Source: Eledone cirrhosa (Eukaryota). Taken from it: a stretch of 64,000 bases of DNA. The DNA is taken from assembly GCA_964016885.1 (NCBI GenBank), contig OZ024740.1, positions 372,744,001-372,808,000 on the forward strand. The letters run 5' to 3'. The notes below the pieces were generated by a model. That model searched no databases. It saw only the letters and a list, made by a program, of their open reading frames with translations, and had not been told where the DNA came from. The position numbers and the translations under genes are program-made. This document shows positions 35,946-57,505 of this stretch, piece after piece (the first letter of the stretch is position 1; each line of letters starts with the position of its first letter).

Positions 35946-36305
35946 TACATTCATGTATACATCGCTATTTCAGAGCACCAATCCTAATTTTCAATTTTTG
36001 CTGGACCGGCAATCGCTCTGTATAATCAGTTCCTGATTATTACTGGAATTCTATAAGAATCCAACCTCTATAATTTTCGGCAAAGGTCGGCGAGTGCTAG
36101 GCTCTGATGAACACCAACAGTGTGGAACAGATCTGTCAGCTTATCTCCCTTCCTTTGCTGAAAAAAGAAGTAAGTGACATAGTCACTACTTTAAAATAAT
36201 AGCTCAAGGTCTTCAACATGTTTTTAATTAAACATGCAGTATATTGCCAAATATACTATACATACATTCATGTATTCATCGTTATTTCAGAGCACCAATC
36301 GTAAT
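35946..36305 (+). mobile_element. Retrozyme-like element: 317-bp monomer plus about 43-bp terminal redundancy (family of 27357)
   Basis: tacattcatgtat.catcg.tatttcagagcaccaatc.taat occurs at 35946 and 36263; reverse-complement homology to the 27.4-kb repeat. Confidence 0.8.
36100..36141 (+). ncRNA. Type I hammerhead ribozyme (C3:G8 core; GAAA mutated to GGAA)
   Basis: ggct CTGATGA acac-caaca-gtgt GGAA cagatctg TC agct. Confidence 0.8.
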
Positions 36306-36360
36306 GTATATATATATGTATATATATATACATATAAATATATACATATATATATATATA

Positions 36361-37708
36361 CAATGACCAATGGACAACAACAACCACCTATAGTTTGTGG
36401 TCCCTATTGTGGATGGTCCACCGGATCCTCATCTGGTTACGAGTCATCAATACCACGTTTTATTGAACCTGAGGAAAGCCCCCCCTCCCGGCTGCGGCCC
36501 ACACAGGAAGAACAATTATCCCAAGTTACTAACCCTATACGCATGAATGAGTGCCCGCAACCGTGCATTGTGTGTGTATACTGGGACTGCCTGAATGTAC
36601 ACACTCATGTGAACGCAACGTAATACTAATACCCCAGGTTGGATTGATAAATGTTCGAGTGTATGCTTAAGAGAATATTTGTATATGCTCTCTTGTATGA
36701 GTGCACATGTGCATATAGACATACACGAGCATCCAGAGGTATAAAAGTGTGGGTGGGTATATATGTCTCTACTAAGGGATTTGCCTAAGCTCCAAAGTCC
36801 CCAAGCTATTGCTGTGAAGATATATATCACACTCTACCTTTGTCTAGTCTAGACAATAAATTTTCCAAACACACACTTTACTTTTCTTTAAAAATAACAC
36901 CCACCTAGTTTTATGTCTGCCTTATACTTGGTTTGGGGGCCTCTGTTATATATATATATATGCACTTGTGCGTACATATATATATACACACCTGTATGGA
37001 TTTGTGTGTGTAGATCTGTGTGTGTCTGAGGGGTAGGTGTGAGTGTATGTACAAGTCAACCAACATAAGTCCTTTTATTTCTAAATTTTCTAAACTATCT
37101 AAGTATTTGACTCTAACTATTATTTTAAGTATTACCACCCCACATTAATTCCTCAATTTGTATGTGTGGATGTGTGTGTGTGTCTGTGGTGGTGGGTTTG
37201 AATGTATGAGAGAGCCAACCTACATGAGTCTTTTTATTTGTAAATGTTCTACTCTAACCATAATTTTCAGTAGCACCACTCCACATAAATTCCTCAATTT
37301 AAGAATGACCTGTAGTATCTATTTCATACTATTAACCTTAATTGAATATATATATGACCAGGAATGCTTTTTGAGAAAATCATTCACATGGAACTATTGT
37401 CACCTTGCCTGACGGTTTGAACTTTACAACACCACCTGCCTCTTTGAGGTCCAATACCAACCCTACTAGCATCTACAAACTGACCAATGAGAATTAAGAC
37501 TATTCCTGCTGACAACATTAAATTATTCCTAACAAGCTCATATGTCCCAAGGCTCTGATACCATCAACACTATAAACACAGAGCTGGCATATCTAAGAAC
37601 TGACTAACTGCCTGATGAGGTCATAGCCATTCAATGGCTATCATCGAAATATATATAGCAGTAAATAAAGAATTATGAGTGCATACAATTGACCTATGTT
37701 TCGTCACT
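36361..37708 (+). mobile_element. 1.35-kb ORF-poor element between (TA)n tracts, with a 3' HHR
   Basis: Bounded by TA tracts; HHR about 45 nt from the 3' end; no PLE protein motifs seen. Confidence 0.55.
37607..37662 (+). ncRNA. Type I hammerhead ribozyme
   Basis: actgc CTGATGA ggtc-atagcca-ttcaa-tggctat-catc GAAA tatata TA gcagt. Confidence 0.9.
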
Positions 37709-57249: not shown

Positions 57250-57505
57250 ATAATAATTGTTTCTATTTTTGGCACAAGGCCAGCACTTACGCAGTACATT
57301 ACTGGTACTTTATTTTATCGACCCCATAAGGATGAAAGGCAAAGTTAACCTCGACGGGATTTGAACTCAAGTTACAATAATTGTTTCTACTTTAGGCAAA
57401 AGGCCAGCAATTACCCAGTGCATTACTGGTACTTTATTTTATCGACCCCGTAACGACGACAGGCAAAGTTAACCTCGGCGGGATTTGAACTCGGATCGTA
57501 AAGGG
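57250..57505 (-). mobile_element. Head-to-tail pair of 5'-truncated SINEs inside one 19-bp direct repeat
   Basis: Two copies (about 57250-57370 and 57373-57505); aaatcaaattacaataata at 57237 and 57506. Confidence 0.85.

Follow-up and report, generated by a model that had tools for sequence, protein, structure and literature searches.

Retrozyme insertions with two fixed 3′ ends in the genome of Eledone cirrhosa, seen from a decayed copy of 1.13 units

The retrozyme copy and its sister

The window considered here is a stretch of 64,000 nucleotides of Eledone cirrhosa DNA (assembly GCA_964016885.1, contig OZ024740.1, positions 372,744,001 to 372,808,000). It holds two copies of a short repeated element with a predicted hammerhead ribozyme, called below the window copy and the sister; their features are as follows.

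35946..36305, + strand: retrozyme copy of 360 letters, a solo arm with the ‘long’ end, 1.13 laps of a 317-bp unit
35946..35988, + strand: redundant 43 bp, 5′ copy (monomer positions 1-43), identical to 36263-36305 at 40 of 43 bases
36074..36086, + strand: extended stem I, 5′ arm
36101..36140, + strand: type I hammerhead core with stem I GCT/AGC, CTGATGA (36104-36110), stem II ACAC/GTGT and palindromic stem III, ACAGATCTGT; predicted cut after 36137
36125..36125, + strand: G for a conserved core A (GGAA instead of GAAA), private to the window copy
36152..36164, + strand: extended stem I, 3′ arm
36263..36305, + strand: redundant 43 bp, 3′ copy, ending at the long 3′ end of the family
36272..36305, + strand: 34-nt ‘tail’ from the short 3′ end (after 36271) to the long 3′ end; 35 nt in the young subfamily
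36307..36360, no strand: (TA)n at the 3′ end of the window copy, likely the target microsatellite
27340..27356, no strand: (TA)n at the 3′ end of the sister
27357..27954, − strand: sister copy of another subfamily, ~1.85 laps of a 323-bp unit, long end, two hammerheads with a U3/A8 core
27952..27972, + strand: inverted 21-nt piece of the stem I 3′ arm at the 5′ junction of the sister, read from sequence

The window copy by itself is an ordinary decayed member of its family; the feature is real, and the kind of element is already known. A sequence-only reading of this DNA had described a 317-bp period with a terminal redundancy of about 43 bp, and both were recovered. The match between the two 43-bp pieces stops at both flanks of the copy, which rules out a redundancy derived from the flank, an outcome that the reading had named as fatal to its interpretation. 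Two further points of the reading were borne out: the window copy and the sister stop at the same nucleotide before (TA)n, and the hammerhead lies in the middle of the copy (the predicted cut corresponds to monomer position 192). Inspection of the flanks revealed one arm only, with no (TA)n on the 5′ side and no target-site duplication. The unique 5′ flank is joined to the copy in short-read contigs of three runs, and loose (AT)n ends after monomer position 43 were seen in 15, 17 and 11 contigs; these runs come from one sample, which may be the source of the assembly itself. The nearest other copies found were ~95% identical, in a DNA search biased to full-length copies. Past the (TA)n, the 3′ flank (36360-36800) is a high-copy repeat. 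Elsewhere in the window, at 57252-57492, there is a 124-bp tandem repeat of 1.9 copies, belonging to a repeat that is present beside other loci too.

Rfam gave no hammerhead match at the window copy, either at gathering or at E-value thresholds; the ribozyme is called from its motif and from covariation. The core reads GAAA in 148 of 161 listed laps of the family and GGAA in the window copy, a change that presumably inactivates its predicted ribozyme. Among the copies of the family, core positions N3/N8 are CG (124), TA (16), TG (4) or CA (4), and the stem II pair 168/176 is AT (88), GC (45) or GT (8); double changes occur at 16 of 32 predicted pairs in eight diverse copies chosen by hand. The differences between window copy and sister in stem II and in the extended stem I are those reported from the sequence earlier. 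Judged by core, stems and covariation, each unit carries a type I hammerhead, as a retrozyme should (the window copy with its core substitution), and stem III is perfectly palindromic in three subfamilies, an architecture in which cleavage is said to need a dimer (PMC4209133). Hammerhead-like motifs of unrelated families were also noticed near Penelope-like elements (L187:603, L190:8586, L200:1007, L183:8828 and L192:3639).

The sister unit is 82% identical to the window unit. Its 5′ end adjoins, in the same orientation, a LINE-type reverse transcriptase fragment (RVT_1, E=3.6e-11; window 27973-28438, − strand), beyond which lies (AT)n at 28439-28517. The two may have been brought together by a switch of template, from retrozyme to LINE RNA, or by a deletion afterwards.

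Two 18-mers of the window copy matched the genome (3.0 Gb) 3,762 and 3,637 times; their reversed controls gave 0 and 1 matches. Exact motif matches for the units of 317, 323 and 310 bp numbered 3,762, 555 and 4,262. The units are tandem, dispersed, presumably non-coding and of the length expected of a retrozyme unit (about 170-400 nt). Metazoan non-LTR retrozymes, as the main texts describe them (Cervera and de la Pena 2020, PMC7229834; Li, Clavereau and Pollet), are alike in a non-coding, low-GC unit of ~300 bp, a type I hammerhead, a range from monomers to multimers and thousands of copies. The element fits this class on every feature that can be tested from DNA, and the window copy is probably an old, ribozyme-dead non-LTR retrozyme copy of the animal type.

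Insertion ends and arm lengths

Loci of the old family were picked by internal 18-mers only, in the first 80 Mb of contig C1, and yielded 207 arms. Two loci were left out of the counts, the young array L084/L201 and L059, a minisatellite (at L059:1940-3025 a 31-bp repeat has grown from retrozyme monomer positions 245-278), and the DNA search favouring full-length copies was kept out of the end statistics. The 3′ ends fell into 82 long ends (positions 36-50), 77 short ends and 48 elsewhere; the short end lies 34 nt upstream of the long one, the two end windows together make up 11% of the unit, and the exact stop at monomer position 43 recurs in 62 of the 207 arms. Fixed internal priming, as proposed from the sequence, is thus supported by clustering at fixed sites; random copy ends, which would have spoken against it, do not fit these counts.

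The single 3′ peak predicted by the same reading was, however, not what we saw: there are two peaks, one for each arm of two-armed insertions. The 207 arms included 63 head-to-head pairs (the window copy is itself solo), and a long end was combined with a short one in 30 of the 31 pairs with both ends classed; exceptions in the old family were one long+long pair (L004) and one short+short pair. The 5′ ends were scattered, as predicted, with no gathering at the ribozyme site (4/159 near the cut site, 5.5 expected). The prediction of non-integer lengths above one unit also held, with 40 of 159 old arms longer than one lap. None exceeded 1.6 laps, and the mean was 0.69; copies of 1.7-1.9 laps came from searches favouring long copies.

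One of the flanks examined contained a perfect 5.8-mer of a 310-bp unit, stopping at the short end. This young unit is 69% identical to the window unit; its hammerhead 26-mer accounts for the 4,262 genome matches given above, with 497 matches for short ends on (TA)n and 1,001 for long ends. We took 90 young stretches, selected through the short end (40), the long end (40) or the hammerhead (10). They held 91 insertions, of which 71 were long+short pairs and 13 were scored as solo; in 5 the partner lay beyond the fetched stretch, and 2 were unclassed. These counts include L293, perhaps an assembly duplicate and counted twice, and L326, a rearranged pair counted as solo; L280 has no array. Head-to-head pairs make up 78 of the 91 insertions, and no long+long or short+short pair was found among them, all 71 readable pairs being long+short. 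The rule of two ends thus held across about 30% sequence divergence between the old family and the young subfamily.

Young arms are long. Out of 162 complete arms, 144 exceed one lap (mean 4.4, maximum 17.7), which supports at the family level the multi-lap copying first suggested for the window copy, and two more arms run past 22 laps and beyond the fetched stretch. (TA)n follows 155 of the 162 young 3′ ends, and most solo arms are flanked on both sides by (TA)n or (CATA)n-like sequence. The 5′ ends avoid no phase and show no excess near the cut site (4/162, 5.7 expected). An excess spotted post hoc lies in the stem I 3′ arm (32/162 in 10% of the unit, p=1e-4); it is partly due to microhomology at junctions, and arm-arm junctions mostly have an overlap of 1-6 bases or a few extra bases. 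We also considered an assembly artefact as the source of the young arrays and rejected it: ends, phases and flanks differ between the arms, and polishing cannot make private fixed variants.

Old arms almost never exceed two laps, as against the young mean of 4.4, so a length of 1.13 is by itself a weak signature of copying over more than one lap, contrary to the weight first put on it. The lengths of old arms depend on phase. For a fractional part x below 0.2, between 0.2 and 0.6 and between 0.6 and 1, arms of 1.x and 0.x laps stand at 24:13, 17:62 and 0:43, respectively (Fisher p=0.0006). Such a shortage is predicted by removal of whole laps through recombination until little overlap is left, and not by a memoryless stop; a toy model of collapse fitted with log-likelihood -328 vs -336 for the memoryless stop. 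We consider it likely, from these lengths, that the window copy is the collapsed remnant of a longer array; its 43-bp overlap is of the short kind that would escape further collapse.

The alternative, for the old family only, is that its arms were never long, the enzyme having been less processive, and that 1.13 laps is the original length. This reading, which is compatible with a circular template, is the simpler one and agrees with the mean old arm of 0.69 laps and with the lack of triples in the hammerhead matches listed for two old subfamilies (65 and 100). Yet a memoryless stop with plausible means predicts 6-18 arms longer than 1.6 laps and we observed none. Moreover, the subfamily of the sister keeps an arm of 3.1 laps and an array of at least 10 laps (L415/L416, G000:C1:93463053-93466392; its ends lie beyond the stretch read) with units 8-18% apart in a star-like manner, about twice the usual divergence. 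We therefore hold arms that were never long to be a tentative second choice, clearly behind collapse.

Retrozyme copies of 1.x units are in this respect no direct read-out of lap number. If collapse is the right reading, these common copies would be fossils of collapsed arrays, and their length spectrum would measure the homology needed for repeat collapse.

The template of an insertion

We looked at variants within the young arrays. The hammerhead haplotype differs between two random young insertions with probability 0.81, and the two arms of an insertion agree in 64 of 66 pairs; from lap to lap the haplotype changed in 5 of 607 steps. Throughout the laps of an insertion, 29 variant types were fixed, and 15 of these were private to one insertion, e.g. 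265A>T in 24/24 laps (spanning both arms), 295A>G in 22/22 and 296T>G in 18/18. Common fixed variants are located at N7 or in loop II, or keep the stem pairing. Single-lap substitutions numbered 79 in 238 kb (40 transitions and 39 transversions, a rate of 3.3e-4), and the 42 for which the partner arm covers the same lap were unshared. Among the fixed variant types 8 of 29 are A>G and 4 are T>C, relative to an arbitrary reference, too few to be used as a signal of A-to-I editing.

The young variants favour one circular RNA copied from both target ends, with exceptions (2 of the 66 pairs disagree). The choice left by the sequence-only reading between a circular and a multimeric RNA can be made only at this level; the window copy cannot discriminate. 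In the old family the pattern is apparently the same, with less power: divergence is 5.5% from lap to lap, 5.9% from arm to arm in register and 6.3% out of register, compared with 11.9% between unrelated loci, and laps concur on the minor allele in 69 of 81 cases. At L337, unit position 143 is A in laps 1-4 of the long arm and G in its last two laps as well as throughout the seven laps of the other arm; this would reflect a switch of template or A-to-I editing in the course of copying, the latter implying that the long arm was made first.

The strongest rival on the template, improbable in our judgement, is a usually linear, uncut multimeric transcript of a long genomic array, copied by the same enzyme from the same two starts with both primers in register. 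Two insertions show what a linear or multimeric template would give: in L357 the hammerhead haplotype switches between laps 2 and 3 of both arms, and in L299 one variant is common to lap 1 of both arms. Arrays of more than 22 laps are available as sources; in vitro, as reported in the main text of PMC11167929, the main substrate was uncut RNA, and ribozyme mutants were without effect on insertion. Against this, each of the 29 fixed variant types needs a monomer bottleneck and regrowth: a variant fixed in 24 laps implies passage through one monomer followed by multiplication, which linear copying cannot do, as it can neither lengthen an array nor fix a new variant in all laps. Linear copies of arrays of equal variant density should also have shared ~19 single-lap variants, yet shared ones were seen in 2 insertions; these calls come from the assembly, and the comparison fails if the variants are assembly errors or later mutations. 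Finally, the old subfamilies are ~12-18% apart, yet laps are alike within each locus.

A single haplotype per insertion would also result from one cut linear monomer, with the enzyme jumping from its 5′ end to its own 3′ end at each lap. Changes at the base that directly follows the cut occur in 3 of 781 laps (two independent events), and three fixed variants are found 2-4 nt beyond the cut, as such jumps might leave them; the fixed variants near the seam, however, also fit stem I pairing. In 778 laps the base next to the cut is kept and, as noted above, 5′ ends do not pile up at the seam, which together argue against a jump across a break in each lap. The seam patterns counted include no single-lap insertion or deletion, and jumping would need to be all but free of errors and hardly ever lead onto another molecule (the 5 changes in 607 steps). 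We regard this reading as very unlikely.

Still less probable is an inverted arm made by fold-back or self-priming, with one arm templated by the other; self-priming was suggested as the origin of Penelope inversions (PMC3846280). The haplotype common to both arms agrees with it, L357 fits, arm lengths are weakly correlated (rho 0.30, p=0.01, n=71), stem I complementarity is used at several junctions, and such an origin could be hidden by later loss at the palindrome centre. But in 30 of 71 pairs the arm with the short end exceeds its partner in length, the junctions are asymmetric, solo arms exist with either end, and the arms of L337 differ at laps 1-4. The least probable reading, that short 1.x-unit insertions came first and then grew locally by unequal exchange or slippage (a local amplification scenario for retrozyme arrays appears in bioRxiv 10.64898/2026.07.22.740005), would yield pure arrays and can draw on the very long arms L287, L301 and L333, where variants recurring in distant laps are a sign of DNA-level rearrangement and show some exchange, but it is contradicted by the youngest copies being the longest (0/159 old arms exceed two laps), by the single variant fixed in one arm only among 116 paired arms with at least two laps, and by the 79 variants confined to a single lap.

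Penelope-type anatomy and the proposed mechanism

Insertions of Penelope-like elements are described as having an inverted 5′-truncated copy and, at one end, a tail of 30-40 bp; Naiads target (TA)n, and Neptune is biased towards microsatellites (PMC8557442, PMC3846280). Purified Poseidon protein cut and extended both strands of AT-rich DNA in vitro, and its two internal RNA start sites bound the tail (PMC11167929). The origin of the tail and of the inverted copy is presented in PMC8557442 as an open mechanistic question. The retrozyme insertions bear the same marks: a tail of 34-35 nt at one end only in 30/31 old and 71/71 young pairs, the inverted 5′-truncated partner arm and the AT-rich or (TA)n target.

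EN+ Penelope-like elements (Neptune/Nematis, Poseidon, Naiad; PMC8557442, PMC3846280, PMC11167929, PMC4209133) are alike also in 5′ truncation, partial tandems and a hammerhead with palindromic helix III. Unlike them, the retrozyme apparently has no ORF, its unit is 310-323 bp, and its arms of many complete laps record the template. The non-autonomous Chlamys elements, e.g. MRC1 (PMC8557442), share with it a non-autonomous Penelope type and multicopy head-to-tail insertions; they are green-algal, most lack a hammerhead as far as that source describes them, and they resemble an autonomous partner at the 3′ end, whereas no partner match was found here.

We saw the same anatomy in autonomous elements of this genome. 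There are 10,595 GIY-YIG candidates, of which the best 150 were scored; three frames were scanned and all carry RT and GIY-YIG domains. An uninterrupted Penelope-like frame of 938 aa, a candidate enzyme for work in vitro, lies at L181:4806-7622 (− strand) in a young family with copies ~97% identical; its Cys linker is of the Neptune/Nematis type, the clade being named from the linker alone. In four autonomous RT + GIY-YIG families a long and a short end, separated by 39-66 nt, abut (TA)n, with one kind of end per arm where both arms could be read.

Penelope-like elements have been named the likely mobiliser of retrozymes (PMC7229834; bioRxiv 10.64898/2026.07.22.740005), and retrozymes were tied to Penelope pLTRs by homology and phylogeny in the latter. 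Unlike the retrozymes of that source, ours showed no such homology: in 40 Penelope-like loci from the best 150 of the 10,595 candidates, blastn and nhmmer detected nested insertions and one weak match, at L136 in the opposite orientation. With no sequence common to the retrozyme and the Penelope-like families at these 40 loci, it is anatomy only that points to the partner enzyme.

Other known routes of insertion differ. A SINE mobilised by a LINE has a single, tailed 3′ end and is flanked by target-site duplications; the retrozyme has two ends, internal laps read through both end sites, and the window copy, as noted, has no target-site duplication. In L1 twin priming, both target ends prime on one RNA and a head-to-head inversion results; that RNA is linear, each of the two cDNAs represents another part of it, and the second site is variable. 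The retrozyme arms, unlike these, both cover one unit many times from two fixed sites.

We propose that the window copy was probably written into (TA)n by a trans-acting Penelope-like RT/GIY-YIG enzyme that rolled round one circular RNA, and that it probably shrank later to 1.13 units. Tandem copies would be transcribed, and their hammerheads would cut as dimers by virtue of the palindromic stem III; the cut monomers would be ligated into circles unable to cut themselves. The enzyme would cut both strands of the (TA)n target, and the two 3′-OH ends would prime at two internal sites of the same circle. Both cDNAs may then run for several laps, stopping at random, though more often in stem I, and be joined to each other by microhomology (pairs); alternatively, one may be joined to the other target end (solo copies). 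Recombination between laps would finally remove whole units until little direct-repeat overlap remains.

Parts of this scheme have precedents. Tandem cDNA from an RNA circle was proposed for metazoan retrozymes, with circles seen by Northern blot (PMC7229834), and more-than-unit copying from a circular template had been proposed in 2014 (PMC4209133). The main texts of PMC7229834 and bioRxiv 10.64898/2026.07.22.740005, in the parts covered, have no maps of insertion ends, long/short two-armed insertions or haplotype tests of laps, all of which are given here. More generally, the literature searched (main texts, partial coverage) yielded no map of two-armed retrozyme insertions, no lap haplotypes and no study of a cephalopod retrozyme. 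The insertion anatomy was thus not found described there, and we consider the mechanism put forward for it likely. What the window adds is the link of a decayed copy of 1.13 units to a multi-lap process, the persistence of the two-end rule and the signature of collapse.

One could extend the scheme to Penelope-like enzymes at large and suppose that they carry out twin-primed rolling-circle reverse transcription, in which one complex would use both (TA)n ends and two sites ~35 nt apart on a single circle to make two multi-lap arms; judging from the insertions compared here, we lean, by a small margin, towards this view. If true, it would account for three traits of all EN+ Penelope elements, namely the tail, the partial tandems and the inverted pLTR. 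The active 310-nt family offers exact start sites, target and template for work with purified protein, and each lap of its arrays is a record of the template.

Two observations concern neighbours of the two kinds of element. The short ends of an autonomous family at L199 (about 5780) and of the young retrozyme at L201 (about 4400) both read TTCA followed by CATATATAT; this likeness of the two ends may be a lead to the partner, too short to be scored. At L200:5374-5820, a two-armed retrozyme has inserted into the (TA)n that adjoins the short end of an autonomous Penelope-like copy.
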